IMG/VR virus record: IMGVR_UViG_3300022309_000007
Location: 1-56,472 of that record
Length of the DNA: 56,472 nt
Source of the DNA: a virus
Lineage: Duplodnaviria; Caudoviricetes
Direction: 5' to 3' (one strand)
The translations under genes were made by a program, and so were the position numbers. Positions 7,948 to 41,128 of the stretch are shown here, in pieces. Each line of letters opens with the position of its first letter. Position 1 is the first letter of the stretch. The notes beneath the pieces are model-generated. The model was not told the origin of the DNA. It was given only the letters and a program-made list of their open reading frames with translations, and ran no database searches.

Positions 7948-8161
7948 TATCTCGGAAGAGAAGGACATCTGTGTCATCACAATGGATTTGCTCAACGGTG
8001 ACCGGTACGGGTCTTTTATCCGGATGCGGCTTGGCGGGGTTGCTGAAGTGCTGGTCGAGCTGCGGGTGTTGAAAGTGAAGAACTTGGAGACGGGGGAAGT
8101 GGTTGATGTAGCTGATCCGGCCGGGGACTACACCGACGACACGCCCGCGGTTCTGCACTGA
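7940..8161 (+). CDS. Small hypothetical protein
   Basis: Overlap-coupled to both neighbours. Confidence 0.6.
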   Translation: MDNISEEKDICVITMDLLNGDRYGSFIRMRLGGVAEVLVELRVLKVKNLETGEVVDVADPAGDYTDDTPAVLH

Positions 8162-10331: not shown

Positions 10332-10601
10332 GTGCGAAGAAGTCAACCGGCTCCCCAGGAAGACCCGTCCGTCAAGGTGTTTCGCGAGCGTCAGATTGAA
10401 GATTTGGCGAAGATCGACGAAGAGGAAAACCGGCGTCTGAAGATGGCTTTTCGTTTGACTCGCGGCGTGCGTGCTTTCCGTCCTTCGGCTGCCGGCGGCA
10501 ACGGTTCTACGTCTGGTGGAAGTGGTGGTCCATCCGGCGGGCGTGCCGCAAGTCGTCCCGGTCGTGGTTCGCGCCGCGGCGAAGGCTTTAGAATACCCTA
10601 A
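10332..10601 (+). CDS. Small pre-portal protein (Gly/Arg-rich tail)
   Basis: GAGGA RBS, TAATG coupling to portal; usual position in podoviruses. Confidence 0.65.
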   Translation: MRRSQPAPQEDPSVKVFRERQIEDLAKIDEEENRRLKMAFRLTRGVRAFRPSAAGGNGSTSGGSGGPSGGRAASRPGRGSRRGEGFRIP

Positions 10602-12175: not shown

Positions 12176-12443
12176 AGAGGTAGATTGGCTGGATGACGTT
12201 AGCGCGACGCAAGCTCGAAAGGACCAAGAACGTCAGGCGATAGAAGATGCACAACCCTACCTACTGTTCGTTGACGATGAACGTGGTCGGCAGCTAATGC
12301 AGCGTTGGGACCGTGATTTATGGAACCTGCGTACGCCGCCTGACGCGCCTATCCAGCAGTATGCGGCGGACGAGGCGCTTCGTGCGTTCATCGCCAGGTT
12401 GAAAATTCAGATTGAATTAGCGCAACGACGGATGGATGTATAA
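12168..12443 (+). CDS. Small post-portal protein (Bbp19-like)
   Basis: FxxxxGxxLxxxW...E..R.FI..L pattern; position after portal. Confidence 0.65.
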   Translation: MDEEVDWLDDVSATQARKDQERQAIEDAQPYLLFVDDERGRQLMQRWDRDLWNLRTPPDAPIQQYAADEALRAFIARLKIQIELAQRRMDV

Positions 12444-12884: not shown

Positions 12885-15050
12885 ATGGCAATGGTAGATG
12901 GTGACTGGAGCATTGATCGGGCAACCGGCAATATCCGATATATTGGAGATGACCACACGCTGTCCGGTGGTTCGCCATCGTATGCAACAGTCATTCAGTT
13001 CCACAGATGGCTGCAAGCCTTTGCCGATGACGCGGAATTTACCGGTGATGACGAGCTGGACATCATTGACCAAAACCCGTCGAATCGCTCGACGGACAAC
13101 ATTATTACGCTGGTCAACGGTTTCAATGTTGACGCAACGGCGATCGAGCATCTGTACGACGGTACGATCATTCAGGGTTCCGGGTTAACCGAGGAACGCT
13201 GGGACGGTATCGTCAACTTCGGTAGCCCGACCAACCACATCCAAGTTATCCAGAACGGCGCGATCCTTTCGGATGACTTCTGGAATTACGGCTGGGAAGC
13301 GGGCACGCACACTGGTGCTAATGACGCATCTGTTCTGACGGATTCCACCCTCGGCGCAACAGTGGATCAGTTCGTTGGCTACACCATCAAGAACATCACT
13401 GATGGCAGCCAGGGCATTATCACGGCGAATACTGCGACAACTGTTACTGCTACGCTCTACGGCGGCACGGATAACGACTGGGATACTGGTGACGTTCACC
13501 ACATCGCAGTCCCGCTGAACGGCGACAGTGCGCAGGGTATCTCGCATCGCTTTATGATTAAGACTCGCGATAATGGCGTAGACATTGACCGCAGGCGATT
13601 GATCGGTACGACCCGTCGCTATGGCAACACCTACTCCGAGTTCAAGATCAATGGCACCGGCCAAGGTAACAACGTATTCGCCCTGAACGATTCCGCTGAC
13701 CTGAACAACACGACTCCGTGGGCTACCATTAACGCGATTGCCGACATCACCAATACGGAAGGTTTGCGCCTGATCGACATTTCAGGCGACGGAAGCACAG
13801 AGGAATACTATTCCGAATGGGACCGTGGCGCGAACAGCATCAACACCTTCTACCAGTATGGTAAGCTGCTGCAAGCGGATGGCTCTGTTTATACGCTGAA
13901 CTCACTCAACGGCGAGAGTTTCCGCGGTATTACCCATCACTACCAGTACGACAACGAAACCGGCACCAACTTCACCACGAACGATGTGGGTTGCTACGGC
14001 ACGAATGTTGTGTTTACGGGCGGGTCCGGTACGGCGGTTCTGGGTGAGGAAATCTTCGAGGACTCGGCAACCCCGACTTGGAAGGGCAGGATTGTTGGCA
14101 TCGATGACAACACCGGCACCGGCTCGATCATTGTCGATGTCGAATCTGGCACTGTAACGACCGCAGAAACCTTCTCAACGACCAATGGCTTCGCCGGCAC
14201 CGTATCAGGTACGCCAACCGCACAGAACGCGGCAGGGCGCCTGATATTCTACGCGGTCGATGATGATGGCACTACGGGCAATATGTACGTGCAGGTATTG
14301 GCTGGCGTTGCGCCGGTAAACAACACTCGCATTTTCTTCGGGAATGCGACTGCGGACGTTGCCAGGTTCCACGATGTCGATACGACCTCGCAGGCGGTAT
14401 TGGAGCGCACCATCTCCACACCGTTCGTGGGTGCGTCTACGGGTTCCGCGCTGATCGGTGCGTACGGTCTGGGTCTGCAAGCTGCTGATACGGCTGCTGC
14501 GGACACGTACTTCGACCTGTCGAACACCGCCATCACACCGCCGAACAACGTCACATTCACGGCATCCGGGTTTATATCCGGTGACTATGTGTTGTGTACC
14601 GAGGACAACGGTGGCGACATCAACTACACGCAGATGGCGCTGAACGCAACCTATAACAGTGCTGGTGTAACGACCATATCTGTTAACGCCATTCCCTCTG
14701 ACACTCCATCGTCGGCGGGTACGAAAGGCGGCATTCGCATACAGCGCGACAACGGCCTGTACAGCCTGCACAGGTATTCTGCTTTCGACACAGGCACCGA
14801 TGACTTCACCATCCCGTCAACGGATTTCAGCAGCAACAACGCGACCTCTGGTAACAACGTGTTCGTGACCTACCTCGACCTCGTGACTTCCGGAACATCC
14901 GAGAACTTCTCGTATGTTTACAGTTCGGATCGAACGCACTTCCTGCGAGTCAGGGATGGCGGCGCGACCCCGATCAAGACGGCGGAAGCTACGGGCGTAA
15001 TGGGTACCAACGGAGGCGTCGCGTCGGTTAACCGAATCAGTGACACCTAA
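12885..15050 (+). CDS. Large acidic Gly/Thr/Asp-rich beta-strand protein, putative fibre/adhesin (721 aa)
   Basis: Composition and position; no signal peptide. Confidence 0.7.
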   Translation: MAMVDGDWSIDRATGNIRYIGDDHTLSGGSPSYATVIQFHRWLQAFADDAEFTGDDELDIIDQNPSNRSTDNIITLVNGFNVDATAIEHLYDGTIIQGSGLTEERWDGIVNFGSPTNHIQVIQNGAILSDDFWNYGWEAGTHTGANDASVLTDSTLGATVDQFVGYTIKNITDGSQGIITANTATTVTATLYGGTDNDWDTGDVHHIAVPLNGDSAQGISHRFMIKTRDNGVDIDRRRLIGTTRRYGNTYSEFKINGTGQGNNVFALNDSADLNNTTPWATINAIADITNTEGLRLIDISGDGSTEEYYSEWDRGANSINTFYQYGKLLQADGSVYTLNSLNGESFRGITHHYQYDNETGTNFTTNDVGCYGTNVVFTGGSGTAVLGEEIFEDSATPTWKGRIVGIDDNTGTGSIIVDVESGTVTTAETFSTTNGFAGTVSGTPTAQNAAGRLIFYAVDDDGTTGNMYVQVLAGVAPVNNTRIFFGNATADVARFHDVDTTSQAVLERTISTPFVGASTGSALIGAYGLGLQAADTAAADTYFDLSNTAITPPNNVTFTASGFISGDYVLCTEDNGGDINYTQMALNATYNSAGVTTISVNAIPSDTPSSAGTKGGIRIQRDNGLYSLHRYSAFDTGTDDFTIPSTDFSSNNATSGNNVFVTYLDLVTSGTSENFSYVYSSDRTHFLRVRDGGATPIKTAEATGVMGTNGGVASVNRISDT

Positions 15051-15055
15051 GAGAA

Positions 15056-16921
15056 ATGGCGGCACCCGTATATGCAACCGACCTTACTGATTTTTGGGTT
15101 ACTGGGGGAACCACCACAGTAACGGCCATCGGTACGGGCGGTGCCGGTCTCGGAAACCCTGAAACCGACTTTTTCATCCAGAGCACCAGTTGTGTCAGTA
15201 AGGCCGCGTGGACGAACGCCACCAAGGGCTTCATCATTGATGGCGTGGCCGGGAACTTCACAGTCCCGACTGACGGCGCGGTTATAGCGTTTATGAAGTA
15301 TGATGCCGCCGGTTCGCTGGATACGAAAGCGAACGGCGGCCTGCAAATGATAATAGGCAGCACTAGTTCTGCGTACTACCATTTCTATGTCGGCGGTAAA
15401 ACGACACTGGCGTTCGATTCGTGGATTCCGTACACGGTAGACCCGAATACGGCTACGGCGGATAACACAACCGGATCGCCGGGCACGAACGAAAGATGGG
15501 TTGGAGTGCTTGCTACTCTGCCCACTACGTCAGGACCGACCAAGGGCAACCCGATCGCGATGGACGCTATTCGATATGGGCGTTGCCGGATTGACTACAC
15601 GGTTGGGGATTCAGGAACGCCAGCCACGTTTGCAGGTGCAGAGGCTTATGGTAATGATGTAAGCCGCCGATGGGGTTTGCTGGAACTTCTTAAAGGCGCG
15701 TACCAGACGCAGGGCTTTCACTCTATCGGTACGTCAGGCACGGCCTGTTATTTCAGTGATGCGAACAGGGTTATTTTCATTCGTCCGTCAGGCGCGAACA
15801 ACGTCAGTAACGACTCGGTATCGAATGCGTTTAACCGCTTTGAAATAATCAACGCATCGACCACCTGCATCTGGGACAACATTCTGTTTCAGGCGCTGGG
15901 AACGCGAGCAAGAGGCCGATTTTACCACACGGCCGGAACATTTACCGTGACCAACTGCCAGTTTGTTAACACTGGCCTGATGTCACTGCTTTCGACCAGC
16001 TCGTTGACCAACTGCATCATGCGTAGCTCAGGCGTGATAACAGCCCCAGGCTCAACGCTGAATGGCACGAAGATTCTGACCAACAGGGCCGGGACCAACT
16101 TGTCCGCTCTGGTGTGGGACGTTGCAACAGACGCAGATGGCAAGCTGGACAACATGGAGTTTTCCAAGGGTACAAACGCGCATCATGCGATAACCTTTGG
16201 CACAAGCTCACCGACCACAATCACGATGCGTGGCGCGGACTTCACTGGCTTTAGTTCGTCCAATGACAATGACGCTTCGGTGTTCAAGTTTCTAAGAACG
16301 TCCGGAAACGTAACACTGAACCTGATTGGCTGCACACACGACGGTTCAGGGTTCACGATTGATGACAGGGCAGGCTGTACGGTCACGGTCGTTATCGATC
16401 CGGTCACGACATCGGTGAACGTCAAGGATCGAAACAAGAACAACATCCAGAACGCCAGGGTGTTTGTCGAAACGGCAGCTACCGCAACGGGCGGCGAAAT
16501 GTTCGAGGCGGCGGTTACGTCTCTTACCCAGTCGGCAGGGACCGCCACTTGTACAATGACGGCTCCGCACAAGCTGGCGACGAACGATTACGTGGTGATT
16601 CGCGGCGCGCAACCGGATGGGTACAACAAGGTCGCACAGGTCACGGTATCCTCGACAACGGTATTCACTTACACAGTGCCGTCAGGGATAGCCGGAACTG
16701 CAACCGGAACGCCGGTGGTATCTCTGGTTCCGCTGTACGGGCTCACGGACGCTTCGGGCAATATATCGTCGTCGAAAACCTGGGGGATAGCACAGGATTT
16801 GAAAGGATGGGCGCGAAAGAAGAACACATCCAGCCCGTTTTACAAGGACGCCGATATTGCTTATACCGTGAATATCACGGCAGGTAACACCACAAATGTC
16901 GTACTACAACCGGATGAATAA
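15056..16921 (+). CDS. Beta-helix-containing fibre/adhesin-like protein (621 aa)
   Basis: Beta-helix-like repeats (TNCQF, TNCIM, DNMEF) and a C-terminal T..H.L...D.V.I.G....YN...V module. Confidence 0.7.
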   Translation: MAAPVYATDLTDFWVTGGTTTVTAIGTGGAGLGNPETDFFIQSTSCVSKAAWTNATKGFIIDGVAGNFTVPTDGAVIAFMKYDAAGSLDTKANGGLQMIIGSTSSAYYHFYVGGKTTLAFDSWIPYTVDPNTATADNTTGSPGTNERWVGVLATLPTTSGPTKGNPIAMDAIRYGRCRIDYTVGDSGTPATFAGAEAYGNDVSRRWGLLELLKGAYQTQGFHSIGTSGTACYFSDANRVIFIRPSGANNVSNDSVSNAFNRFEIINASTTCIWDNILFQALGTRARGRFYHTAGTFTVTNCQFVNTGLMSLLSTSSLTNCIMRSSGVITAPGSTLNGTKILTNRAGTNLSALVWDVATDADGKLDNMEFSKGTNAHHAITFGTSSPTTITMRGADFTGFSSSNDNDASVFKFLRTSGNVTLNLIGCTHDGSGFTIDDRAGCTVTVVIDPVTTSVNVKDRNKNNIQNARVFVETAATATGGEMFEAAVTSLTQSAGTATCTMTAPHKLATNDYVVIRGAQPDGYNKVAQVTVSSTTVFTYTVPSGIAGTATGTPVVSLVPLYGLTDASGNISSSKTWGIAQDLKGWARKKNTSSPFYKDADIAYTVNITAGNTTNVVLQPDE

Positions 16922-17737: not shown

Positions 17738-18580
17738 GTGACTGAAGTAGTAGCAGAGACACCTGCGGCCGCGGAAGCGGTACCCGCAGCCCCTGAAGCA
17801 GTAACGGAAACACCGGCAGCCGCGCCAGCAGCGCCGGTCGTCAAAGGAACACCGGCTTCGTTGGTGGATGGCGTCAAACCCGGCGAGCCGGCAGAAGCGC
17901 CGAAATGGTTCTTGTCTGAAGGCGTTGGCGGTTCGGGCGATGCGCCTGACTGGTTCAAGGCGGATAAGTACAAGACGGTAGACGAACAAGCTCGCGCGTA
18001 CACGGAACTCGAGAAGAGGTTCGGCGCGTTCGAAGGCGCTCCGAAAGATGGCGTGTACAAGATCAACCCGCCTGAGGGCATCCAAGTAGAGTTCGACACG
18101 GAACACGAGTTGTTCCAAGGACTCAACAAGTGGGCCAAAGAAAGCAACCTGTCCCAGAAGGGTTACGACCAGGTGATCGGAATGCTGGCGAAGTACGAAG
18201 CATCGCTGGCGCCGGACATGGGCGAGATCAAGAAGCAGGTCGGCGAGAACGCAGACGCCCGAATCTCTTCGGCAACGCAATGGGTTAAGTCGAACCTGTC
18301 TACGGACGAGTATTCGGCTTTCTCGAAAGCACTGACCCAGAGTAACGCGGCTGAAGTGTTCAAGGCGTTCGAAGCTGTGATCGCCAAGACACGGCAAGTG
18401 GCTATGCCGAAACCGGGCGAGGATGTAACTTCCGCGGTTGATACCGGCAGAGAGGCGATTCTTGCAGCTCAGAACAAGAAGAACGATAAAGGCGAACGGC
18501 TTTACGATATCGATCCGAAGTACCGGATGGACATTGAAAAGCGGTGGATGGAGTACGCGGCAGCACAGAAAGCTGCCTAG
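17738..18580 (+). CDS. Capsid assembly scaffolding protein
   Basis: Ala/Pro/Glu-rich N-terminus, KYKTVDEQARAYTELEKRFG, C-terminal YxxDPKYR; directly upstream of MCP. Confidence 0.85.
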   Translation: MTEVVAETPAAAEAVPAAPEAVTETPAAAPAAPVVKGTPASLVDGVKPGEPAEAPKWFLSEGVGGSGDAPDWFKADKYKTVDEQARAYTELEKRFGAFEGAPKDGVYKINPPEGIQVEFDTEHELFQGLNKWAKESNLSQKGYDQVIGMLAKYEASLAPDMGEIKKQVGENADARISSATQWVKSNLSTDEYSAFSKALTQSNAAEVFKAFEAVIAKTRQVAMPKPGEDVTSAVDTGREAILAAQNKKNDKGERLYDIDPKYRMDIEKRWMEYAAAQKAA

Positions 18581-18799: not shown

Positions 18800-19672
18800 A
18801 TGTCTATCAATCTCGGCGGTGTATTCAGTACGAATACCAATGCCGCAATCATCTCGTATGACAACGAGGTAAAACAGGCGTATCAAGGCGCTGCTTACAT
18901 CCGTAATCGCGTTCGCGTGAAATCGGGTGTTACCGGTCAGACCTACGACTTCCGTACGATGGGAGCAGGTCTTGCCACGCAGCACACGTCGTCTGAACTG
19001 ATCACTCCGCAGGACTACAGCCATGCTAAGAAGCCGGCTACCCTGACCAACTGGAGGGTCGGTGACTACACCGATCTGTTCGACCAGGCGGAAACCACGG
19101 TTGACGAACGTGCTGAACTGGCGAAAGCAAACGGTAAGGCCATTGGCCGTGCCGAAGACCAGCTCATTATCGACGCGCTCGACGCAGCCTCCGGCATTGC
19201 TGGTACGGTTGACGAAGACCTTGGCGGTACGGACAGTCTGATCAACGCAACCAAGCTGCTTCGCGCCAAGCGTTACCTGATGGCGCAGCAGGCCAATGGT
19301 GGCGAGCATACCATTCTGGTGAACGCTGCCGGTCTGGAAGGCGCGCTGTCGGAGACCACGGTTACGTCGGCTGACTATCAGACGTTCCGCGCACTGGTCG
19401 ACGCGAACCTGGACGAGAAAGTGGCGTTCGGCTTCAAGTGGATGGTGATCGAGGATCGTTCGGAAGGCGGCCTGCCGACTGGCTCCAGCAACATTCGTCT
19501 CTGCTTCGCATTCGACAAGTCTGCGGTCGGCCTGGCAGTCGGCATCGAGCCGAAGACGTACGTTGACTGGGTTGGCGAACGGCTGTCGTTCCTGTCGCAG
19601 GCGGTTGTTAAAGCCGGCTCGACGGTTATCGATCCGCTCGGCGTGGTTGAAGTACAGAGCTACGAGGCTTAA
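18800..19672 (+). CDS. Major capsid protein
   Basis: AGGAG RBS; VKQAYQG, YTDLFDQ, DERAEL, AIGRAEDQLIIDAL; between scaffold and terminator. Confidence 0.9.
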   Translation: MSINLGGVFSTNTNAAIISYDNEVKQAYQGAAYIRNRVRVKSGVTGQTYDFRTMGAGLATQHTSSELITPQDYSHAKKPATLTNWRVGDYTDLFDQAETTVDERAELAKANGKAIGRAEDQLIIDALDAASGIAGTVDEDLGGTDSLINATKLLRAKRYLMAQQANGGEHTILVNAAGLEGALSETTVTSADYQTFRALVDANLDEKVAFGFKWMVIEDRSEGGLPTGSSNIRLCFAFDKSAVGLAVGIEPKTYVDWVGERLSFLSQAVVKAGSTVIDPLGVVEVQSYEA

Positions 19673-19676
19673 TTTT

Positions 19677-19710
19677 TCGGGCGGCGGGTAAAACCGTCGT
19701 CCGACTTTTT
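19677..19710 (+). terminator. Rho-independent terminator after MCP
   Basis: TCGGGCGGCGG-GTAAAA-CCGTCGTCCGA followed by CTTTTT. Confidence 0.8.
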
Positions 19711-19745: not shown

Positions 19746-20009
19746 ATGGCATATGAACTCAGTAACCCGGTTCGTCGAATCGGCCCCCAAGGCTCTGGAA
19801 ACTCGCTTTGGATGTACGTGGACGGCGATGCGCTGGCTACGATCGACGGGGCAGATTACTTTCTGCTCGACATTGACAAGTTGAAAGTAGGCGATGTGAT
19901 TATCGCTGTTGGTAACGCGGTATCTGGCATTGGCGTCGTTCTGACGAATAATGGCACCAATATCGACGTATCCAACTTCGCTGGTCAAGCAACGATCGAT
20001 TCCGACTAA
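19746..20009 (+). CDS. Small capsid decoration/minor head protein (putative)
   Basis: GAGGA RBS, post-MCP position, WxYxxxDxxATIxxxxYF...LKVGDVI motif. Confidence 0.75.
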   Translation: MAYELSNPVRRIGPQGSGNSLWMYVDGDALATIDGADYFLLDIDKLKVGDVIIAVGNAVSGIGVVLTNNGTNIDVSNFAGQATIDSD

Positions 20010-20014: not shown

Positions 20015-22078
20015 ATGCGATTCGATTGGAAAAAGCAAGGCAGGCTGGCCCTCTTATGGGGGGCCGGCCTTTTTTCGTTTTCAGCAATAGCCGGACCGAC
20101 CGTTCCGGCGCTGATTAACGCGGACGGCACGGTCGACACCGAATACCGTGCCGGCGACAAAACCGCAGGAGACGATCAGGCGATCTGGATTGACACGCCA
20201 AGCCCTACAGCGACCGAAGGCGTGGCGGTCAATTACGACCTGAGACAGGACTGCATCGACCCGGAATCGGCGCCTGTTACGCTCAGTAATCTTGTCTGTG
20301 ACACGGCCCTGCCGACCGGCGTATCCCTGTCCTCGCCCAATATCGTGTTCACGACCGGCACCAGTGCCGGAACGACTACGGGCTGTTCTGCCGATTGCGA
20401 AGACGGCACGACGGCGGCAGTAACGAGCCTTGATTTCAGTATTGTGATATCAGCAGCTCCGGTTGGCATTACAGTCGACGGCGATGGCGGGGCAGATTTC
20501 ACAACGATCCAGGCGGCTGCGAATGCTGCCGTTTGCGGTGACACGATTCTGGTGCGGAATGTCACTGGCGGCGGTGGTAGTTATAACGAGGGTGTAGTCA
20601 CGACCCGTAACTGCACTTCCGGCAATGAGATTGTGATTCAGGCCGACGCCGGGCATGCGCCTGTGTGGACCAAGAGCGGCGGCGGGCTTCATCTGACGTA
20701 TAACCATACCGGATGGGATATAGGTGCCGGCATCCATCTTCAGGGCACTAACCCGTACACGCAAGGCGCTCCATCGAGCGGAAACAACATAGTCGTCATC
20801 AATACCGCCAACAATATCTTTCGTGGCAAGACCACGAAGGCCGGAAACATTGCGGTAGACATTAAGGCCGGTGGAGATAACACCATAATTGCCGACGCCG
20901 ATATCCAGGGATGCGGCTCGGCAGATGACGGCAGTAACGGTGACGGTGGTAACTGTGTCTTTCCGCGCGACGGTATAAATGGATTCTTGCTGGTCAATAC
21001 CCGCGTATCCGAGGGCGGGCACAGCTTGTATCAGTTTTTTCAGGACGACAACTTTCGTTTCGAGAATGTTTTATTTACTAACGACTGGGTACACGCATTC
21101 GGCTGGACCGGGACGATTGGCGTAGGTAATCGCGCCGGTTCGGTTAACAGCAAAGACGGTGGAATCAGCACCAACTATGCCTGGCGCGGTGTTTTAATTA
21201 ACCGGACGCACAGAGCAGTAGATGCCCCAACACAAGCGGCGAAACTTAACGGTTTTGATCTTTCCATTTCGCGCACAATTGTTCTGGATCACAAAGCTGG
21301 CGGTTCTGTGTACTCTATTGCTTCCGGCGGCGGGAATCAGTCGGCTTTTGGTGATATCTTCATTGATCATGAGACGGTCTTCGGGTCTAGCGATGAATAT
21401 ATATTCAGGAACGACAACGGCGGCAGTTCTGCCGGCAGGTTATGGATCAAGAATGTCATTCTGACCAACATCCAAGGTGGTGATGTCATCCAGTTTAACT
21501 ACTGTTCTACGCAGGGCGGGGCGCGAGGGAACTGGCGTCAAAGCCTGTTTGTCGATGGCGTTATTATCGACGCCAACAAGACCGTTGATGTCAATGATAC
21601 TTGCGGCAGCGGCGATGTTACGAACAATATTTTATGGTTCGAGGCGAACGAATCGGGAAACTTTTCCAACATCACGGTAGTAAATCCGAATTTCGTCAGC
21701 ACGACATTGCCGACTTCAACTGTTCCTGCAACGGCTTTATCGCAGGCACGGGCTAACTTCTTGCCGCAGGCAGTCGAGGCCCTTGGTACTGGCAGCCCGT
21801 TGACCACGGTAGTCGGTGCACAGAGCAACGATACTGTCATCGAATTGCCAGCCGATCAGGCGGGTTGGTTCCGCGATGACGATAACAACGGATCGTTTCC
21901 GGATTGGGCTGATTTCGTGGATGGCGACACGATCACGCTCTGCGGGGCGACACGCGAAGTCGTTGGTTACAATCTGACGACCGATACAATAACACTTAAC
22001 TCCGGTGTGACTTGCTCCGGCGGCGAGGGTATCTACCGTGGCAGCGATGCAACGCCTAACATGGGAGCGGTGCTGTGA
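20015..22078 (+). CDS. Signal-peptide-bearing right-handed beta-helix (pectate-lyase-like) protein with Ig-like N-terminal module
   Basis: MRFDWKKQGRLALLWGAGLFSFSAIA signal; LPTGVSL Ig motif; DFTTIQAAANAAVCGDTILV beta-helix cap; 12 Cys. Confidence 0.75.
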   Translation: MRFDWKKQGRLALLWGAGLFSFSAIAGPTVPALINADGTVDTEYRAGDKTAGDDQAIWIDTPSPTATEGVAVNYDLRQDCIDPESAPVTLSNLVCDTALPTGVSLSSPNIVFTTGTSAGTTTGCSADCEDGTTAAVTSLDFSIVISAAPVGITVDGDGGADFTTIQAAANAAVCGDTILVRNVTGGGGSYNEGVVTTRNCTSGNEIVIQADAGHAPVWTKSGGGLHLTYNHTGWDIGAGIHLQGTNPYTQGAPSSGNNIVVINTANNIFRGKTTKAGNIAVDIKAGGDNTIIADADIQGCGSADDGSNGDGGNCVFPRDGINGFLLVNTRVSEGGHSLYQFFQDDNFRFENVLFTNDWVHAFGWTGTIGVGNRAGSVNSKDGGISTNYAWRGVLINRTHRAVDAPTQAAKLNGFDLSISRTIVLDHKAGGSVYSIASGGGNQSAFGDIFIDHETVFGSSDEYIFRNDNGGSSAGRLWIKNVILTNIQGGDVIQFNYCSTQGGARGNWRQSLFVDGVIIDANKTVDVNDTCGSGDVTNNILWFEANESGNFSNITVVNPNFVSTTLPTSTVPATALSQARANFLPQAVEALGTGSPLTTVVGAQSNDTVIELPADQAGWFRDDDNNGSFPDWADFVDGDTITLCGATREVVGYNLTTDTITLNSGVTCSGGEGIYRGSDATPNMGAVL
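20042..20075 (+). terminator. Rho-independent terminator embedded in the signal-peptide codons of 20015..22078
   Basis: AGGCTGGCCCTC-TTATG-GGGGGCCGGCCT-TTTTT. Confidence 0.75.
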
Positions 22079-24426
22079 AGAAGTTAACGGCATTACTTTT
22101 AGCTCTGTTATCGACGGTACAGGCGGTTGCGCAGGTCACGTTTAGCGAAGTCACCGAGTCGATTCGCACCGACACTACAGACCCGTGGACGTTTAACTGC
22201 ACCAATACAGGCACGCCGGAAGGGGTTGCGATACTCATAACCGCAACAGACCCGCAGGCATCGAGCGACATTGATTCTGTCTCGTTCGGCGCGACATCAT
22301 TGTCCCGCGCCGGTTCCGCATACTCTGACACAGCGACCGAACCCGGTACTGTCGAGGGGTGGTTTGCGGGATCGTCCCTGCCGACCGGGGATCAGACCGT
22401 TACCGTTAATTTCGTCTCGGCAAATCCAGCGCCGGATTATTCGTTTGTCTGCGTAACAATACAGGCGAGCACGGATACCGAGGTCATTGACACCGATGGA
22501 CTTAGCGAGAATCAAGCTGATCCGTCCGTAACCTTGCAATACAGTGGACGTACAGCGATAACGCTGGGCGTGTCCTATTGGGGTGCGGGTACGTCGGGTG
22601 TTCCGGCATGGAACGCCAACATGACGGAGTTGGATAATCACGATTTCGGCTCTTTTGTGTACGGTGCCGCTCGTCAGACAACGCCGGGGACCAGCGATTT
22701 CACCTGTTCCGCTACACAAGCGACGGACGACGTGGCCTTTTATTGCATGGCGATCTCGGAAGTGGCTGCTGTTCCGTCGTTTACGAGCGCTCCATCCTGT
22801 TCGGCCACAACGAATGGGGTTTCTTGTAACTACACGGCGAGTGCTGCGTCTACAGCCTATGGCGTGGGGGTTGCTCCGGCAGACGGCGTGCCAACTTGCA
22901 CACAAATAAAAGCGGGCCAGAACGATGGCGGGACCGCTGCCCTTTCAAGCGGCAGTGATGCCAATACAGGCACGGCCGATACGATTAACATAACGGCAAC
23001 CGGGAACATTCCACGACTCGACTATCATTTCTGCCTGAACAATGCGGGCGGCGATAGTGCTGTCGATTCAAGTCAGAGTGACAAGGACCGAAGCGCCAAC
23101 AGTGGCAAGACGCTGACTGCCCTGACTTCGGTTGCCTCTACCTCGTTCCTGGTTAACCCGACCGACGCCACTGGCGACACGGACGGCTCGACTGCCGTTA
23201 TCACGGGCATGACGGACACCAGCGACTTCGAGGTCGGTATGCTGGTCGATGTATCGGCAGGCTTTGCCGATCTGACCGATCTTCTGGTGTTCAACAAGAC
23301 AGCAACTTCATTGACGCTGGAAATCAACTCAAACTCTGTGCAGGCCAATATCACCGTTACGGGTAACGATTACTTTGACCCTGACGCAGCTACCGGAGAC
23401 GTGATCGAGGGCGCAACGACCGCAGTATGCGATGCCGGTACAGATTCTCCTGTAACCTGGGACGTTGATGGCGATTTCAGCTATCCGGCCACCAATTGCG
23501 GGGCGTCGCTGACTACCATCGATTACTGCATCCAGGACGTATCGGCAGCGAACGGGTTGACCACGACACCGGGCGATTGTTTTACGACCTATGACAAGCT
23601 GTACCTGTTCAATTCGGCGCCGACACTGGAAGGGCTGCCGGATATATTGATATGGGATATCAATGTGGCGTTGTCCGGCGTTAGCTTGTCCGGCTATTGC
23701 GGGGACGCAGATTCTCAGCCGCTGACGTACATTACGAGGGCAGGAGCGTGGCCCACTGGCGTATCGTTAGCTGTTGACGGCACGCTTTCCGGTACGCCGA
23801 CAGTAGAGAACGAGTCGGGCGTTACTCTGGACAATATATGTCAAGACCCCGGACTGCTGGCCAGTGCATTCGACGTAACGGTCTACGTGATTGACACATG
23901 GACTATGCCGGACTGCACCGGAGACACGGTAGCGGCTTGTATCACGGCTGTAGATGCTGTGGCGCCGTGGTATGGCGGAGTAGGCATATCCGCCGACGGT
24001 GAGTGCAGTGCGACGGTACCTACAGACGACATCATAAGTCAGTCACCGGTCGAGTTAACAGAAGTCGATAACCCGCTTTCGCTAATCAATGTGTCTGTAT
24101 CGACAGGTTTATGCGCATCATGGGATTTGACGGGGCTTCCATCATCGTGGCGAACTGTGGCGGATGTACTTAGCAATAAGTACTTCGTCGCAATCAAACA
24201 ACAGGAATGCGACGGTGATGGCGTATGGGCCAAATGGCGTGCCGGGACTGAGGTAACGCCTCGCGGTTCATCGAATTGTGTGTTGCAAAGAGATGTTATT
24301 CGAGCAGAGGCTGATGGTGCTGCTACTTGGGCTCGTTGGAGGCCGGGTACTAATCGTAACTCCAGCAATCTTCAATTGAAAGTAAGGTCTGCTTTAACGG
24401 TGGATTTTGTACTAACACCAAACTAA
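22075..24426 (+). CDS. Signal-peptide-bearing multidomain protein with He_PIG-type Ig and PASTA-like domains
   Basis: MKKLTALLLALLSTVQAVA signal; WPTGVSLAVDGTLSGTPT; MPDCTG...SATVPTDDIISQSP...VSVSTG; 20 Cys. Confidence 0.75.
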   Translation: MKKLTALLLALLSTVQAVAQVTFSEVTESIRTDTTDPWTFNCTNTGTPEGVAILITATDPQASSDIDSVSFGATSLSRAGSAYSDTATEPGTVEGWFAGSSLPTGDQTVTVNFVSANPAPDYSFVCVTIQASTDTEVIDTDGLSENQADPSVTLQYSGRTAITLGVSYWGAGTSGVPAWNANMTELDNHDFGSFVYGAARQTTPGTSDFTCSATQATDDVAFYCMAISEVAAVPSFTSAPSCSATTNGVSCNYTASAASTAYGVGVAPADGVPTCTQIKAGQNDGGTAALSSGSDANTGTADTINITATGNIPRLDYHFCLNNAGGDSAVDSSQSDKDRSANSGKTLTALTSVASTSFLVNPTDATGDTDGSTAVITGMTDTSDFEVGMLVDVSAGFADLTDLLVFNKTATSLTLEINSNSVQANITVTGNDYFDPDAATGDVIEGATTAVCDAGTDSPVTWDVDGDFSYPATNCGASLTTIDYCIQDVSAANGLTTTPGDCFTTYDKLYLFNSAPTLEGLPDILIWDINVALSGVSLSGYCGDADSQPLTYITRAGAWPTGVSLAVDGTLSGTPTVENESGVTLDNICQDPGLLASAFDVTVYVIDTWTMPDCTGDTVAACITAVDAVAPWYGGVGISADGECSATVPTDDIISQSPVELTEVDNPLSLINVSVSTGLCASWDLTGLPSSWRTVADVLSNKYFVAIKQQECDGDGVWAKWRAGTEVTPRGSSNCVLQRDVIRAEADGAATWARWRPGTNRNSSNLQLKVRSALTVDFVLTPN

Positions 24427-24427: not shown

Positions 24428-25027
24428 ATGAAAGCATTGATCGTCGCAGGGAGTGCGCCGTGTGTGTTCGAGGATATAGCTGCCGCCAGAGAGCTGTACC
24501 CGGACGCTGACACGATCACCATCAACGAAGCGTGTGGCGGTGTTGAGAACATTCAGCACATGCTGGCCGGGCATACCGTGAAGGCTGAAGCCTTCGTGGA
24601 GTACCGGCGGGAGAAGTTCCCGAATTGGGAGCAGCCGATAGCGGTACACGCAAGCTGGCATAGATTGAACGAAGCGCCAAGGGACGACTACCCAAGCGTT
24701 ACAGACTGGCACGGTGGCGATGTAATTACCGGCGCCAGCTCTGCCGGTAAAGCAATACAGATTGGATTGAAGCTGGGGTATGAGCCTATCATCTTGGCCG
24801 GTTGCCCCATGAACGGTAGCGGGTACTTCAACCAGGCGGAGACGGATCGATTTCAGAAGGCTTTTATGAAGTTCGGTAAGTGCCGGCGCATCGGGGATGC
24901 AGCCGAACAGCAGCACCGATCGATTCAGAAGTACCGCGAAAAATTCAAAGAACTGTCGGACACCGTTTGGAAAGGCAAGGTGTTCTCTATGTCCGGGTAC
25001 ACACGAGACTGTCTGGGGGCTCCGTGA
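24428..25027 (+). CDS. Sialyltransferase/MptE(DUF115)-like Rossmann-fold protein, putative glycosyltransferase
   Basis: IVAGSAPC, ITINE, SSAGKAIQIGLKLGYEPIILAGCPM motifs. Confidence 0.6.
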   Translation: MKALIVAGSAPCVFEDIAAARELYPDADTITINEACGGVENIQHMLAGHTVKAEAFVEYRREKFPNWEQPIAVHASWHRLNEAPRDDYPSVTDWHGGDVITGASSAGKAIQIGLKLGYEPIILAGCPMNGSGYFNQAETDRFQKAFMKFGKCRRIGDAAEQQHRSIQKYREKFKELSDTVWKGKVFSMSGYTRDCLGAP

Positions 25028-25575
25028 GCTATTCACGCGAAAATGAAATAGGAAGATACCGTGAAGCCTATAAAAGCCCGCGCTACGGTATGGGAGATAA
25101 GCGCAAGCGCAAAGCCGCTGAAGTTCTTGCAGCGTTGGAGCCGGGCTCTCTACTCGATGTGGGCGCTGGCCGCGGTGAGGGTGTCATGCTGGCGCGCGCA
25201 GCCGGGCACGACCCAGTAGTAGGGATCGAGCCGGTGGAGTATCTGGCAGGCAAGAACAACATCATGGTCGGCGTGGCTACTGATCTGCCGTTCGCAACGC
25301 ATTCATGGGATACAGTGATGTGCCTGGACGTACTGGAACATCTGGTTCCGGAGGACGTGGAGCCGGCGCTGCTTGAGTTCCGGCGCGTTGCCAAGAAGAC
25401 CGTTTTCCTCACGGCGAGTGAACGGCCGCATCGGTTCAAGAATCTGGGTGATCTGCACATATCCAAACGGCCGATCGCAGAGTGGCAAGAATTGTTCGAG
25501 AAAGTTTTCACGTTCGCGGAAATCAAACCGCTGGGCATGGTGGGCGTAAGCCCCGGCTGGCTCATAAGAGTTTAA
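25024..25575 (+). CDS. Class I SAM-dependent methyltransferase (GTG start at 25024)
   Basis: LLDVGAGRG, GIEP, DLPF...WDTVMCLDVLEHL. Confidence 0.88.
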   Translation: MSYSRENEIGRYREAYKSPRYGMGDKRKRKAAEVLAALEPGSLLDVGAGRGEGVMLARAAGHDPVVGIEPVEYLAGKNNIMVGVATDLPFATHSWDTVMCLDVLEHLVPEDVEPALLEFRRVAKKTVFLTASERPHRFKNLGDLHISKRPIAEWQELFEKVFTFAEIKPLGMVGVSPGWLIRV

Positions 25576-25576: not shown

Positions 25577-26143
25577 ATGGCAATCGTAACAAACAGTAAA
25601 ATAGACTTGATCAGCGACGCTTTGATCCTGTGTGGTGAGAAGCCGCTTACGTCGTTGAGCGATAATCGCTATGGCGCCACAGTCGGGTCGAATCTATTCG
25701 AGATCATCTACGAAAACGAACTTCAGTCAAACCGCTGGCGGTTCGCTTGTACCAAGAAGGCTCTTAGCCGGTTGGTTGCTGCGCCGTTGAATCAGTGGTC
25801 TTACGCTTATCAGCTCCCATCGGACATGCTATTGCCGATCGGTGTATACCCGCCCGATCTTCAATACGAGATTTATGCGGACCATCTGTACTCGGACCGT
25901 ACGTCCATTGAGCTGGACTATATGTTCAAGCCGGAAGTAACCGATTGCCCGGCGTACTTCACCAAACTGATCGTATATGCACTGGCAAAGGACATGATCA
26001 AAGCGATCACGGAAAGCGACAACGCTGTGCAGATTATGACTCAGAAGTACAATATGCAAAAAGGTATCGCCATGTACGCGGATGCGCAGGGACGACCGGC
26101 GAAGCCCGTATTCGACTCACCCTATACCGATGTGCGCTATTAA
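25577..26143 (+). CDS. Tail tubular protein A / adaptor (T7 gp11-like)
   Basis: ISDALILCGEKPLTSL, WRFA, YAYQLPSD, final DAQ motif. Confidence 0.85.
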   Translation: MAIVTNSKIDLISDALILCGEKPLTSLSDNRYGATVGSNLFEIIYENELQSNRWRFACTKKALSRLVAAPLNQWSYAYQLPSDMLLPIGVYPPDLQYEIYADHLYSDRTSIELDYMFKPEVTDCPAYFTKLIVYALAKDMIKAITESDNAVQIMTQKYNMQKGIAMYADAQGRPAKPVFDSPYTDVRY

Positions 26144-28660
26144 GTGAGAACGGCTACAGTACAGTCATCCTTTCTTTCCGGGGTTCTCGATCCGAGAGCC
26201 GGAGGCCGGGTAGACGCGGACGCCTATAATTTCGGAATGTTGGTAGGCAACAACGTCATAGTGCACCACCTTGGCGGCGTTGTGCGCCGGCCCGGATTAA
26301 AATACCTGACGCAGCTCCCGAACGTTCTGGAACTGATCACGCCCAGTTCGGCTACGGCACCCAACGGGGGTACCGCTGCGAACGGCTACGACGAAGATTC
26401 GACGACGCTGGTAACCACCACAACCGATATCAACACGATCGACCCTTACGTGGTCATACGATACGACTTGGGCGCCGCCACGGCCGTATCGCATGTTGAT
26501 GTAAAAGACTTCGTTGCTACCGGCAGTTCAAGTACCGAGTTCCGAGTACAAGTATCTCAAGACGACGCGGTGTGGGTGGATTTCGGCGATCCTTTGCCGA
26601 TGGTTGATACTACGTCGAGAACGTATCGCAGAACTTCGTTTTCGGTGGAGGGCTCACCGTCGCCAACGACAGCTCGTTATTGGCGGCTGGTTAAAATAGG
26701 CGGAACGACAATGAGCACTAACACAGTGTCTTTGTCTGAGTTCAACTTATGGTCTGATACTGGTACGATTTCAGAAGTAAAGTTGCTGTCGTTTGAACTT
26801 ACCACCGAGACTCGGTACTTGGTAGCGATAACGGACCGGTCGGCAACTGTGTTCCTGAACGGCGTTGTTCCCGACAGCGGCACGTTTCCGGTCCCTTACG
26901 TCTCGGCGGACATTCCCGACATCGATGCGGTGGTCGGCGCGGACTCACTGTTTATTGTCCACGAGGATTACCCGCCTCGATACGTCGTAGACGAGTTTGC
27001 CGGAGAAGACTTACAAACTGGCGAAGTGGTGTTCGAGTCGCTTCCGCAGTACGATTACGGAGACGACCTGAGCCCGACACCTACTTCTGAGATTCAGGTC
27101 ATTACCTTCGATTCGAACTGGACACAAGGGGATACCTTCCAGCTCGAGCTGGACGGCGCCAGGACAGGATTGATATCTTACGCAGGGGATACCGGCGCGT
27201 TTGATCAGACCACCACGGCGAACAACATCGCACGAGAAGTGCAGAAGTTGTACACGGTGCCGGGGTTCACTGGCGTATCGTGCGCGCGTACCGCGGCTCG
27301 CGAATATACTGTCACATTCGCCGATGCCAGCGCGGATACCTACGAAGGTTTGATGACCGCTATTATAGGTACGGTAGTGTCTACTTCGGCCATATCGCCG
27401 ACTGTAACCCAGTCGCAGGCAGGCGTGCCGCGGTCTGAGGATGTGTGGAGCGCAGTTCGCGGGTACCCGCGGACAGTCACGTTTTTTGAAGGACGGTTCT
27501 ACTTCGGTGGGACGCGCAGTCGGCTCCAGTCTCTGTTCGGCAGCACGGTCAATGATCCGTTCACTTTCGAGCTGCTGGAGCAACTGGATGCGGACCCGAT
27601 CTTCATAACTCTGAACGGGCAGCAGTTGAACGCAATCAACGGGCTGTACTCAGGGCGGACGTTGCAACTGTTTACGTCAGGCGGCGAGTTTCGGTACTTC
27701 AAAGACAAAGGCAACGCGATTACGCCAGCCGATGCGCCTTTGGCACAGACGGAGTTCGGCGCCAAGAAGATAAGGCCGGTGGGTATTGACGGGGCCACCA
27801 TTTATGTTCAGCGGCTCGGCAAGTCTATCCGCGACTTCAAGTATAACTTCGAAGAAGATGCTTACGACTCGCTGGGGCTTTCCAGCCTTGCGCCTCATTT
27901 AATAAACGGCGTGGTTGACTTGGCTGCCTGGCAGGGTTCGTCAACGGACGAGATCAATCTGGTGTACGCGGTGAATGCCGATGGTACCGTTGCGGTATTG
28001 AATATTCGTAAAGAGGCAGAAGTCCGGGCGTGGACAAGCTGGTCTACGGCCGGGTTGTTCAAGGCGGTAGAAACTACAGTCGAAGAGGTTTATTTCGCGG
28101 TAAAGCGGACAATCAACGGTACGGATGTACTGTTTCTGGAACAGACCGACGCGGGTATGTACGTGGACGCCGGGGTGAACGTAAACGGTATGGTGACCGA
28201 TAATGTAGTTCATCTGAACGGAGAAGTATGTCGGGTGCGGCTGAACCCGCAGCATCTGGTGTTGCACGATCAGACTGGTGGTACGGTTACGCCTTCCGAA
28301 CCGGAGTATGCTGCTTCTGCTATCCAGGTGGGGCTAGATTTCAACCCGACAGTTACGCCGATGCCTTTGAACACCATGACTCCGACTGGCGCTAACTTCC
28401 TGAGCAAGCGGCGCATTGTCAAGATCAGGGCCAAGGTGAATAACACATTGGGGTTGCTGGTCAACGGTCGGGAGTTGCCTGATCGGTACTACGATATAGA
28501 CGACTTCGACGATGCAAACCCGACACCGTACAGTGGGAACCACCAGATTGAAGAGACGACCAACTGGGATGAACAAGAAGACAAAACTATTACATTTACA
28601 CAAGTTGATCCGCTGCCGATGAATATCTTGTCGATCGTAGTGGATATGGAGAGTACCTAA
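26144..28660 (+). CDS. Tail tubular protein B / nozzle (T7 gp12-like) with inserted discoidin (F5/8C-like) domain
   Basis: QSSFLSGVLDP, GGVVRRPG, GYPRTVTFFEGRFYFGG, LFTSGGE, C-terminal PLPMNILS. Confidence 0.88.
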   Translation: MRTATVQSSFLSGVLDPRAGGRVDADAYNFGMLVGNNVIVHHLGGVVRRPGLKYLTQLPNVLELITPSSATAPNGGTAANGYDEDSTTLVTTTTDINTIDPYVVIRYDLGAATAVSHVDVKDFVATGSSSTEFRVQVSQDDAVWVDFGDPLPMVDTTSRTYRRTSFSVEGSPSPTTARYWRLVKIGGTTMSTNTVSLSEFNLWSDTGTISEVKLLSFELTTETRYLVAITDRSATVFLNGVVPDSGTFPVPYVSADIPDIDAVVGADSLFIVHEDYPPRYVVDEFAGEDLQTGEVVFESLPQYDYGDDLSPTPTSEIQVITFDSNWTQGDTFQLELDGARTGLISYAGDTGAFDQTTTANNIAREVQKLYTVPGFTGVSCARTAAREYTVTFADASADTYEGLMTAIIGTVVSTSAISPTVTQSQAGVPRSEDVWSAVRGYPRTVTFFEGRFYFGGTRSRLQSLFGSTVNDPFTFELLEQLDADPIFITLNGQQLNAINGLYSGRTLQLFTSGGEFRYFKDKGNAITPADAPLAQTEFGAKKIRPVGIDGATIYVQRLGKSIRDFKYNFEEDAYDSLGLSSLAPHLINGVVDLAAWQGSSTDEINLVYAVNADGTVAVLNIRKEAEVRAWTSWSTAGLFKAVETTVEEVYFAVKRTINGTDVLFLEQTDAGMYVDAGVNVNGMVTDNVVHLNGEVCRVRLNPQHLVLHDQTGGTVTPSEPEYAASAIQVGLDFNPTVTPMPLNTMTPTGANFLSKRRIVKIRAKVNNTLGLLVNGRELPDRYYDIDDFDDANPTPYSGNHQIEETTNWDEQEDKTITFTQVDPLPMNILSIVVDMEST

Positions 28661-37174: not shown

Positions 37175-37720
37175 ATGACAAGCATAGACGACGTACAAGA
37201 CATCAGCCCTCGCGACCAGTATACCGCGTCCGCGGCGCAGACTGATTTCGACTACAGTTTCCCGATCTTCACGCAGGCCGATCTGACGATCTACGTCGAT
37301 GGCGTGCTGCAAGTGTTGACCACCGACTACACGGTAGCGGGCGCCGGCCAGGAGACCGGAGGCACGGTCACGTTCGTCACCCCCATGACCGGCGGTGAGG
37401 TAGTCACCATCTACCGCGATATCGCCATCGCGCGGAACACAGACGTTCAGCAGAACGGCCCGTGGTCGAGCACCAACTACAACGACGAGCTGGACAAAGT
37501 GTTCCTGATCATGCAGGAACTCGAGAACAAGATCGGTCGGGCTATCCGCTTCCCACTCACCGCGGCGATTACGAATGCGCAGGCGGCGCTTGAACCGTTG
37601 TCCGGGTACCTGGGTAAGTTCTTGCGTATCACGTCTGCCGGGATACTGGAGGCTGCGGTCGCACTGGATAACGTTGTCGCTTTAAGCGCAGAAGTTATCG
37701 GTGAGCTGTCGAACCCTCAG
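35231..37720 (+). repeat. Duplicated ~550-bp anchor-domain coding region of the two tailspikes (35231-35790 vs 37175-37720)
   Basis: Near-identical proteins over about 180 aa; includes an identical run TGGATAACGTTGTCGCTTTAAGCGCAGAAGTTATCGGTGAGCTGT. Confidence 0.92.
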
Positions 37721-41046: not shown

Positions 41047-41128
41047 CTTCGGCGAGATCATAGCCAAGCTGGCGGAAGTGGCGGGCCAATACAACGAATG
41101 CCGGCGGGCGGCTTTGGGTGTGGAATAG
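40898..41128 (+). CDS. Rz1: Outer-membrane spanin lipoprotein (overlapped)
   Basis: GGAG RBS, lipobox LCG-C, CPxL and YNEC motifs, overlaps Rz in another frame. Confidence 0.8.
   Translation: MRSGLKRSTLIAAAVMMLCGCSTLSSREQPRQSPLIAVSCPTLTPLTGNSFGEIIAKLAEVAGQYNECRRAALGVE

Follow-up and report, generated by a model that had tools for sequence, protein, structure and literature searches.

A leader-bearing, cysteine-rich gene pair between the capsid and tail genes of a podophage: a candidate exported cassette directed at glycans

Introduction

The sequence studied here (hereafter, the window) is the 56,472-bp linear virus record IMGVR_UViG_3300022309_000007 of IMG/VR, which is estimated to be 83% complete and was analyzed over its full length. 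Its plus strand carries a podophage structural operon with T7-like gene order, in which two large genes, P0001 and P0002, stand behind the gene of the major capsid protein (MCP) and a gene for a protein of 87 amino acids (aa), and ahead of two enzyme genes and the genes of tail tubular proteins A and B. P0001 and P0002 are genuine late genes with coupled translation, and their products begin with Sec-type leaders, are rich in cysteines, and are predicted to be a glycan lyase and a binding protein, respectively. We favor, at about even chances, the view that the pair is an exported, disulfide-bonded, glycan-targeting and mobile accessory cassette that is not built into the virion in the cytoplasm. 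The following sections describe the leaders, cysteines and predicted folds of the two proteins, the occurrence of the cassette in other phages, and the alternatives that have to be weighed.

Two coupled genes with Sec-type leaders

Both open reading frames (ORFs) begin with leaders that have the features of Sec-type (signal peptidase I) signals, as a first-pass annotation of the window had stated and as the translations confirm on direct reading. The leader of P0001 is MRFDWKKQGRLALLWGAGLFSFSAIA, which ends in ...FSAIA and is followed by GPTVP; it contains the basic residues R2, K6, K7 and R10, the uncharged hydrophobic stretch LALLWGAGLFSF, and A-I-A at positions -3 to -1 ahead of G. In P0002, the leader (V/M)KKLTALLLALLSTVQAVA is followed by QVTFS and combines the basic residues K2 and K3 with the hydrophobic stretch LTALLLALL and A-V-A ahead of Q. 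Leaders were called with a crude rule of our own together with conservation in homologs. The features expected of such a signal are positive charge in the n-region, some 7-15 hydrophobic residues free of charge in the h-region, small side chains at -3 and -1, and a residue other than cysteine at +1. A lipoprotein signal was rejected because there is no cysteine at +1, and a Tat signal because there is no twin arginine.

P0002 starts with a GTG that overlaps the stop codon of P0001 (GTGA) and lies 7 nucleotides (nt) after GGGAG. No Shine-Dalgarno sequence precedes the ATG of P0001. The first-pass annotation had allowed for true starts beyond the leaders, and no usable start was found downstream of either one. 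For P0001, the stretch from the ATG at 20015 to the motif LINADGTVDTEYRAGDK contains no further ATG, GTG or TTG in frame. This motif also stands directly behind the leaders of homologs, whose leader sequences are unrelated; a leader occurs at the same point before it in the homologs P0109, P0114 and P0119 and in the first cassette genes of two contigs described below, L006 and L005.

The strongest terminator-like hairpin of the region (20042..20070, plus strand) coincides with codons 10-22 of the P0001 leader. It comprises 13 pairs, 9 of them G-C, followed by the T-run TTTTTTCGTTT, and the RNA fold of 20030-20095 has an energy of -29.2 kcal/mol (z -2.57). In L006, the matching hairpin is intergenic and lies ahead of the first cassette gene. 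In our reading, the hairpin is an attenuator of the T7 style that stands behind the capsid gene and now overlaps the leader; we do not count it against the ORF. A scan for sigma-70-type promoters found none between the 87-aa gene and P0001, the nearest plus-strand match (19924-19952) being within the 87-aa gene. The pair does not have the usual marks of a moron: it has no sigma-70 promoter of its own upstream, its genes overlap or abut, and its GC content (0.54-0.565) is like that of the rest of the genome.

Leader conservation and cysteine pairing

The first-pass annotation had counted 12 cysteines in P0001 and 20 in P0002, largely in neighboring pairs, against 2 in the 721-aa product of 12885-15050, and a recount gave the same numbers. 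The portal, the MCP, tail tubular protein B and the internal proteins have 0-2 cysteines each. In P0001, the cysteines are at positions 80, 95, 124, 128, 174, 200, 300, 314, 497, 530, 643 and 667. The neighbors in P0002 are 42/126, 211/224, 242/251, 275/320, 452/475, 485/502, 542/589, 614/622, 644/680 and 712/735.

Homologs were collected for both proteins. The P0002 family consists of 88 matches from a word-indexed protein search, of which the 16 closest were aligned. The same kind of search gave only P0001 itself for the first gene, and an exhaustive HMMER search then gave 74 relatives, for a family of 75 sequences. All 16 aligned P0002 relatives keep a leader, built of basic residues, a hydrophobic run and a small-x-small site, with the alanine at -1 invariant while the leader sequence drifts, and a stricter self-made rule finds one in 25 of the 29 closest matches (P0003-P0031). 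The earlier expectation that homologs keep their signals thus stands for P0002 but falls short for P0001, since many homologs of its beta-helix body are leaderless. In the P0001 family, the leader travels with the N-terminal linker and the He_PIG module, not with the enzyme core.

Cysteines of P0002 come and go in pairs among the 16 aligned relatives. Both members of C242/C251 are present in 7 and neither in 9; for C275/C320 and likewise for C614/C622, both are present in 10 and neither in 6, and no relative has a single member of any of these three pairs. The pair C485/C502 is complete in 10, missing in 5 and single in 1.

The parity of the cysteine counts points in the same direction, with p-values that overstate the independence of what are related sequences. 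In the P0001 family, the mature protein has an even number of cysteines in 28 of the 33 leader-bearing members (binomial p 6.6e-5), and the count is even in 17 of the 42 leaderless ones. The corresponding figures for the P0002 family are 28 of 38 leader-bearing (p 0.005) and 23 of 50 leaderless members. Close full-length P0002 relatives are even in 24 of 25 cases, the lone exception hinging on where the rule cuts the leader. Cysteine content, subject to the same reservation about relatedness, is higher in the leader-bearing sets of both families (Mann-Whitney p 5e-4 for P0001 and 6e-4 for P0002), and leaderless relatives of the P0002 N-domain (P0032-P0037) contain 0.4-0.8% cysteine. Taken together, leader conservation, the gain and loss of cysteines in pairs and their even numbers form the classical signature of folding in an oxidizing compartment.

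Predicted architecture and folds

The domain labels of the first-pass annotation (beta-helix, immunoglobulin (Ig) and PASTA) hold at the level of fold, on the strength of structure matches, whereas neither protein matches a Pfam family at E <= 0.1. A PHROG scan of both proteins gave a single match, to a PHROG of unknown function (E 0.053). Domain boundaries are listed in Table 1.

The predicted structure of P0001 has a pLDDT (predicted local distance difference test) of 83.5, with the first ~50 residues disordered. Structural matches of its beta-helix (VIA) include alginate lyase 6kfn (Z 26.0), ORF18 of Geobacillus virus E2 (Z 25.1), the AlgE4/6 epimerases (Z 24.5-24.8), the Vibrio matrix lyase RbmB (9ozl, Z 24.6), pectate lyase Pel9A (1ru4, Z 23.3 over 341 residues), and the tailspikes of Sf6 and CBA120 (Z 22-23; Z 21-23 for Sf6, CBA120 TSP2/3 and Kp32gp38 taken together); the Foldseek list includes VexL. 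P0001 resembles a Pel9A/PL9-like, DUF1565 lyase by fold, but its sequence does not match the family models. Protein Atlas structure rows for P0001 likewise name Pel9A-like and DUF1565 proteins, and its feature matches, all scoring below 0.9, serve as leads only. A sequence search of the PDB with P0001 returned no match. Among 21 aligned relatives, Pfam recognizes He_PIG in 4, Chondroitinas_B in 3 and DUF1565 in 2. P0001 is not a demonstrated member of any curated family; as modeled, it joins an Ig-like domain to a beta-helix of the Pel9A/alginate-lyase type and is a predicted glycan lyase.

The P0002 model is confident for residues 230-680 and poor for the N-domain and the C-terminal tail. Its top Foldseek matches are cadherins, SraP, titin and invasin. 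The PASTA region superposes on 3m9g, 3py9 and 5e12 with Z 10.3-11.0 and a root-mean-square deviation of 1.4 A over 65-68 residues at 19-28% identity, and it shows the PASTA fold in the model, where residues 619-629 form the helix and 638-643, 652-657 and 671-676 the three strands. Although P0002 itself does not match PF03793 (PASTA), 8 of its 16 aligned relatives do (best E 1.1e-05). Many tailspike-like beta-helix proteins have a C-terminal end with 60-70% identity to the 65-aa domain of P0002 (TGDTDGSTAVITGMTDTSDF), and T7-tail or P22 head-binding domains occur in some of them. A PDB sequence search with P0002 gave one weak match (2e-4), of residues 227-307 to an uncharacterized protein and a narrow-pilus pilin, and the Protein Atlas gave no usable match for P0002. 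These models suggest a string of Ig/cadherin-like domains with one PASTA domain, that is, a predicted binding protein.

A predicted complex of P0002 residues 20-682 with P0001 residues 27-150 scored 0.00 in a run that had no controls and is uninformative on binding. Paralogy of either protein with other genes of the window was considered and dropped, as neither resembles any other protein of the genome.

A variable slot and a recurring cassette

Judged by the capsid protein, the isolated phages closest to the window are Methylophilales phage MEP301, at 41% identity, and podophages of Vibrio and Pelagibacter. In MEP301, the capsid gene and one small gene are followed directly by tail tubular A, and in Vibrio phage 1.257.O the capsid gene leads straight into it. 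The capsid protein also identified 13 IMG/VR relatives (68-73% identity), 11 of which were examined, the two shortest (L053 and L062) being left out. In the capsid-to-tail interval of these 11, no protein is both cysteine-rich and leader-bearing. The cargo there is leaderless and poor in cysteine, and 3 of the 10 cargo proteins scanned match PHROG tail or tail-fiber families (L056, 356 aa; L058, 301 aa; L052, 1041 aa). Because the slot is empty or otherwise filled in relatives, comparison of the genomes places P0001 and P0002 in a variable accessory cargo slot and not in a core structural position. The first-pass annotation, which had put the pair inside the virion operon, was right about the location, but the slot itself is variable and in relatives is empty or holds leaderless, fiber-like cargo.

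The closest relative of the window is L006, a metagenome contig with 86.5% identity in the MCP, 68.6% in the portal, 70.1% in tubular A and 68.9% in tubular B. Its capsid gene is followed by a small gene, the hairpin, a gene for a 604-aa protein, P0028 (a member of the P0002 family), a gene for a 124-aa leader-bearing protein, the conserved enzyme genes and tubular A. The 604-aa protein is leader-bearing and has 17 cysteines, but it is not a beta-helix: it matches PF14099 (Polysacc_lyase; 3.5e-12, 47.1 bits against a cut-off of 29.9 bits), and an ATGA overlap couples its gene to P0028. In L005, an unrelated viral contig of 74.7 kb, the first protein combines a leader with the motif and matches PF14099 weakly (E 0.0065, short of the cut-off); behind it comes a leader-bearing He_PIG protein related to P0002. 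The post-leader motif, N.DG..DT.[FY]P.G[ND]K, is common to P0001 and the first proteins of L006 and L005, whose bodies differ. That a lyase with a different fold can take the first position in L006 while motif and partner stay the same is, of the evidence gathered here, the best support for two points, namely that the first gene serves to cut polysaccharide and that the pair functions as a unit.

Other contigs extend this pattern. In L003, two leader-bearing proteins, one with 22 and the other with 24 cysteines, stand side by side. A nucleotide-sugar epimerase gene (14222-15127; phrog_540, 4.6e-65) lies a few kb downstream of them and may be a further link of such pairs to sugar metabolism. 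L001, an IMG/VR contig of 9.2 kb, holds an 89%-identical copy of the C-terminal part of P0002 in a different phage backbone, which suggests a recent exchange of the cassette between phage lineages. The head module of L001 differs from that of the window and includes 778-aa and 422-aa head-region genes.

L001 (3-925 region) and L006 (10283-10657) also encode a third, leader-bearing protein of 121-124 aa with the mature N-terminus ATCKISEY, and their P0002 relatives end in a short tail, K..L.G..IG. This third cassette gene is absent from the window, where P0002 ends in a Trp-rich C-terminal extension of ~100 aa. Elsewhere, tailspike-like genes whose products end in the 65-aa domain and have leader-like N-termini occur in L025 (5816-8616) and L030 (7787-10246, equal to L031 1534-3993). 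They stand directly behind genes for giant proteins of 1,499 and 2,219 aa in low-GC phage contigs, and leader-bearing spike-like genes may be more widespread.

Among isolated phages, no match for P0001 or P0002 was found by tblastn in 50,697 records. Scans of 185,579 species genomes gave no locus with P0013 and one locus, confined to the 65-aa domain, with the P0002-family alignment; they rest on exact peptide patterns and thus do not prove absence. A degenerate DNA pattern for NDPP[VI]WN hit 26 stretches in IMG/VR, none of which encodes a relative of either family. From these searches, the cassette family looks phage-specific.

Genome setting and neighboring genes

Features of the window are collected in Table 1. 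Downstream of tubular B, the plus strand continues with internal virion proteins, two paralogous fiber genes and a lysis cassette. On the minus strand lies a replication module, with genes for DNA polymerase, helicase, primase-helicase, a gp2.5-like single-stranded DNA-binding protein and an exonuclease. No integrase was found among the ORFs scanned in this 83% complete record. The phage is an uncultured one; the sequencing runs that contain it are DNA only and labeled as sediment metagenome, and no RNA run is listed.

Table 1. Coordinates of the gene pair, its predicted domains and other features of the window.
Feature	Residues	Nucleotides	Strand	Remarks
Large terminase		8161-9711	+	
Portal		10601-12175	+	PF12236, 1.9e-65
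Scaffold		17738-18580	+	
MCP		18800..19672	+	PF19821 3.1e-54, phrog_3437 1.3e-34; upstream border of the slot
Terminator-like hairpin directly 3' of the capsid gene		19677..19704	+	11 pairs, 8 G-C, then CTTTTTAC; pattern match only
87-aa protein		19746..20009	+	phrog_18004, 5.6e-10; clade-wide after the capsid gene
P0001		20015..22078	+	687 aa, 12 Cys
P0001, leader	1-26	20015..20092	+	
P0001, linker motif	~33-49			disordered in model
P0001, Ig-like He_PIG-type domain	~55-145	20177-20449		
P0001, right-handed beta-helix	149-~590	20459-21784		
P0001, small C-terminal beta domain	~600-687			
P0002		22075..24426	+	783 aa, 20 Cys
P0002, leader	1-19			
P0002, variable N-domain	20-225	22132-22749		
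P0002, Ig-like domains	from ~230			
P0002, 65-aa domain	363-435	23161-23379		TGDTDGSTAVITGMTDTSDF
P0002, cadherin/He_PIG-like domain	512-607	23608-23895		SraP/cadherin-like, Z 11.8
P0002, PASTA domain	608-681	23896-24117		
P0002, C-terminal extension	682-783			fold unassigned
199-aa protein		24428..25027	+	N-terminus M.ALLVVGSAPC; MptE/DUF115 likeness weak (PF01973, E 0.15, not significant)
SAM-dependent methyltransferase		25024..25575	+	PF08241, 6e-11
Tail tubular A		25577-26143	+	phrog_394, 2.8e-38; with tubular B, downstream border of the slot
Tail tubular B		26144-28660	+	phrog_376, 4.7e-106
GH19-type endolysin		39989-40642		PF00182, 9.2e-05; adjoins spanin pair
i-spanin-like protein		40642-41046	+	N-terminal membrane segment; assigned by sequence features, not by family
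o-spanin-like lipoprotein		40898-41128	+	...AAVMMLCG/C; overlaps i-spanin; sequence features, not a family hit

Counterparts of the 87-aa gene (88-99 aa) follow the MCP gene in MEP301, L006 and 9 of the 11 IMG/VR relatives; in the other two (L056 and L060), the ORF listing gives a different ORF at its place. The 199-aa gene has counterparts ahead of the tail genes in L006 and in 8 of the 11 relatives (L050, L054-L058, L060 and L061). Its partner enzymes differ, being an S-adenosylmethionine (SAM) methyltransferase here and other enzyme-like ORFs elsewhere (in L006, region 10696-12346). The methyltransferase ORF is listed as 24880-25575 and probably begins with the GTG at 25024, where it overlaps the stop codon of the gene before it. 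The 199-aa gene and its accompanying enzymes may form a glycan- or virion-modifying module.

The fiber genes (35231-37174 and 37175-39316) adjoin each other and share the N-terminus MTSIDDVQD.SPRDQY, after which they diverge. The second has a weak match to PF03906, the T7 tail-fiber N-domain (E 0.013), the sole such match among the proteins scanned. An SPFH/Band 7 protein (41129-41644; PF01145, 4e-15) follows the spanin genes and closes the plus-strand operon. Between the portal and scaffold genes lie two large genes with no family match, at 12885-15050 (721 aa) and 15056-16921 (621 aa), where MEP301 and the Vibrio phage have small ORFs only. By this comparison, the portal-scaffold interval looks like a second cargo slot.

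Proposed mechanism and alternative explanations

If the pair is an exported cassette, late transcripts that read through the post-capsid hairpins would be translated into P0001 and P0002. Both proteins would then pass through Sec across the inner membrane, lose their leaders and be oxidized in the periplasm of a diderm host, where they would fold with 6 (P0001) and 10 (P0002) disulfide bonds. The spanin pair indicates that the host has an outer membrane and a periplasm. The first cassette position would be taken by a polysaccharide lyase with a leader and an exchangeable fold, and the second by a leader-bearing binding protein of Ig/cadherin-like and PASTA domains. The lyase would attack polysaccharide made by the host itself (capsular, matrix or O-type). 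P0002 would supply binding, with PASTA perhaps recognizing peptidoglycan and the variable N-domain glycan. In the infected cell, the pair could thin the capsule or destroy a glycan receptor, on which progeny and late-coming phages would otherwise be lost. Alternatively, after lysis, the stable soluble proteins could strip neighboring cells.

The first-pass annotation had proposed exported, oxidatively folded proteins of the adhesin or lyase type. The leaders, the covariation and parity of the cysteines, the spanins and the extracytoplasmic nature of the domain types (PASTA, He_PIG/cadherin-like and a beta-helix of the secreted-lyase type) lend that proposal strong, if indirect, support; its picture has to be amended in two respects, as the pair occupies a variable slot and many homologs of the P0001 beta-helix body are leaderless. 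Several observations weigh against the favored view. Besides the relatedness behind the parity statistics and the lack of Pfam matches, the leader rule errs, having flagged cytoplasmic-looking enzymes of the M.ALLVVGSAPC type. The beta-helix body and C-terminal domain of P0001 are common to many leaderless, tailspike-looking proteins, and its matches in BFVD include models of phage structural proteins and tailspikes. Tailspike-like proteins in phage structural modules have the 65-aa domain of P0002 as their C-terminus. Since the same slot holds fiber-like, presumably virion-bound proteins in relatives, position argues as much for a role at the virion surface as against it. Finally, with a terminator-like hairpin in the leader codons of P0001, expression of the pair may be low.

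The main alternative is that both proteins are virion spikes or fibers, either exported and docked at lysis or assembled in the cytoplasm with unused leaders and oxidized later. We consider this unlikely, yet deserving of serious attention. It would account for the tail-fiber cargo of the slot in L056, L058 and L052, for the match of the P0001 fold to phage tailspikes and structural proteins, and for the sharing of the 65-aa domain with tailspike-like proteins that in some cases have T7-tail or P22 head-binding domains. It also draws on 3 of 11 loci (L025 and L030/L031, the latter two with the same protein) in which a leader-like, tailspike-like protein stands behind a giant protein of the internal-virion type. 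However, neither protein has a recognizable particle-binding N-terminal domain or resembles the two fiber genes or other proteins of the genome, and the phage already has two fiber genes with N-termini of the T7-fiber type. Cultured relatives make virions with the slot empty, and conserved leaders with even, covarying cysteines speak against cytoplasmic folding.

A more specific version, which we regard as improbable, is that the lyase and the Ig/PASTA protein are exported, oxidized in the periplasm and captured at lysis by finished particles or the surrounding debris. The pair would then give the virion, or what lies directly around it, a disulfide-hardened, swappable coat that cuts and binds glycans and that could not arise by assembly in the cytoplasm; the shared post-leader motif would be its docking handle. 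We know of no documented precedent for post-lysis docking of exported proteins onto tailed virions, in a literature that was not searched exhaustively.

It is very unlikely that the genes are an auxiliary metabolic or host-benefit module, in which a secreted polysaccharide-utilization pair feeds the infected cell or lysogen and is unrelated to phage entry or release. Pairs of a leader-bearing lyase and a binding protein are typical of bacterial glycan foraging, and the Atlas neighbors of P0001 are bacterial He_PIG and Pel9A-like clusters (scores below 0.9, leads only). Yet the genes belong to the late operon of a phage with a replication module of its own and, among the ORFs scanned in the incomplete record, no integrase; the P0002 family appears once, and in part, among the species genomes; and the cassette swaps domains with phage tailspike-type proteins. 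That the leaders are annotation artifacts, the hydrophobic stretch of P0001 being merely a translated terminator hairpin and the true proteins starting downstream and staying in the cytoplasm, is scarcely credible: the hairpin overlap and the missing Shine-Dalgarno sequence of P0001 would fit, but no in-frame start precedes the conserved post-leader motif, unrelated leaders occupy the same point in homologs, and P0002 has a good ribosome-binding site and a leader in every aligned relative.

Relation to known systems and significance

Work on phage depolymerases normally deals with tailspikes of the virion, which are made in the cytoplasm, and the exported proteins known from phages are small factors of lysis, exclusion or conversion. 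With the tailspike depolymerases (P22, Sf6, the CBA120 TSPs and the capsule depolymerases of Klebsiella phages), P0001 has in common a right-handed parallel beta-helix, a phage-encoded gene near the tail genes and the swapping of modules. It differs from them in its Sec-type leader, in the He_PIG-type Ig domain that replaces a particle-binding N-terminus, and in its 12 paired cysteines.

Exported cargo of phage late regions includes Lom and Bor of lambda, Llp of T5, Cor and the Shiga toxin genes, next to spanins and exclusion lipoproteins. Lom, Bor, Llp, Cor and Shiga toxin are Sec-dependent, are encoded among or next to tail and lysis genes, and act on the envelope or are released at lysis. 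Most come from temperate phages; they are toxins or proteins of small size, often with a promoter and terminator to themselves. P0001 and P0002, in contrast, are two large, multidomain, predicted glycan-directed proteins whose genes are coupled and have no sigma-70-like promoter directly upstream.

Secreted or periplasmic beta-helix enzymes of bacteria that act on glycans (Pel9A, RbmB, VexL, AlgE and WceF of Pantoea) combine a leader with a glycan-active beta-helix, as P0001 appears to do. WceF has been described as an enzyme with a tailspike-like fold that modifies biofilm glycan (PMC7949094). P0001 differs from these enzymes in its place in the late operon of a virulent-looking podophage, its coupled Ig/PASTA partner and its lack of a Pfam match. 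The PASTA proteins PknB, PrkC/Stk1 and the class B penicillin-binding proteins share with P0002 (residues 608-681) an extracytoplasmic PASTA domain. Unlike them, P0002 has a single PASTA domain on a phage Ig string, two covarying or conserved cysteine pairs, no kinase or transpeptidase domain, and, judging from the spanins, a diderm host.

A 2026 preprint reports, for huge phages, leader-bearing sortase B substrates and outer-membrane proteins with a proposed display on or in the host envelope (bioRxiv 10.64898/2026.10.24.761521). These proteins resemble P0001 and P0002 in being phage-encoded and having N-terminal signal peptides, but differ in phage size class, protein families (sortase substrates with PXTG signals and beta-barrels), host type and genome position. 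Full-text searches of the literature gave no description of a pair of a leader-bearing lyase and an Ig/PASTA protein in the capsid-tail region of a podophage, and the preprint on huge phages came nearest.

What is new here is a recurring cassette, consisting of a swappable, leader-bearing lyase and a large Ig/PASTA partner, that occurs across unrelated phage backbones at a site where relatives keep fibers. If the proposed reading is correct, some virulent phages send glycan-targeting proteins through the export and disulfide machinery of the host. This would give phages an added route to condition capsules, biofilm matrix or receptors, and it would point to such cassettes as a source of naturally stabilized depolymerases.

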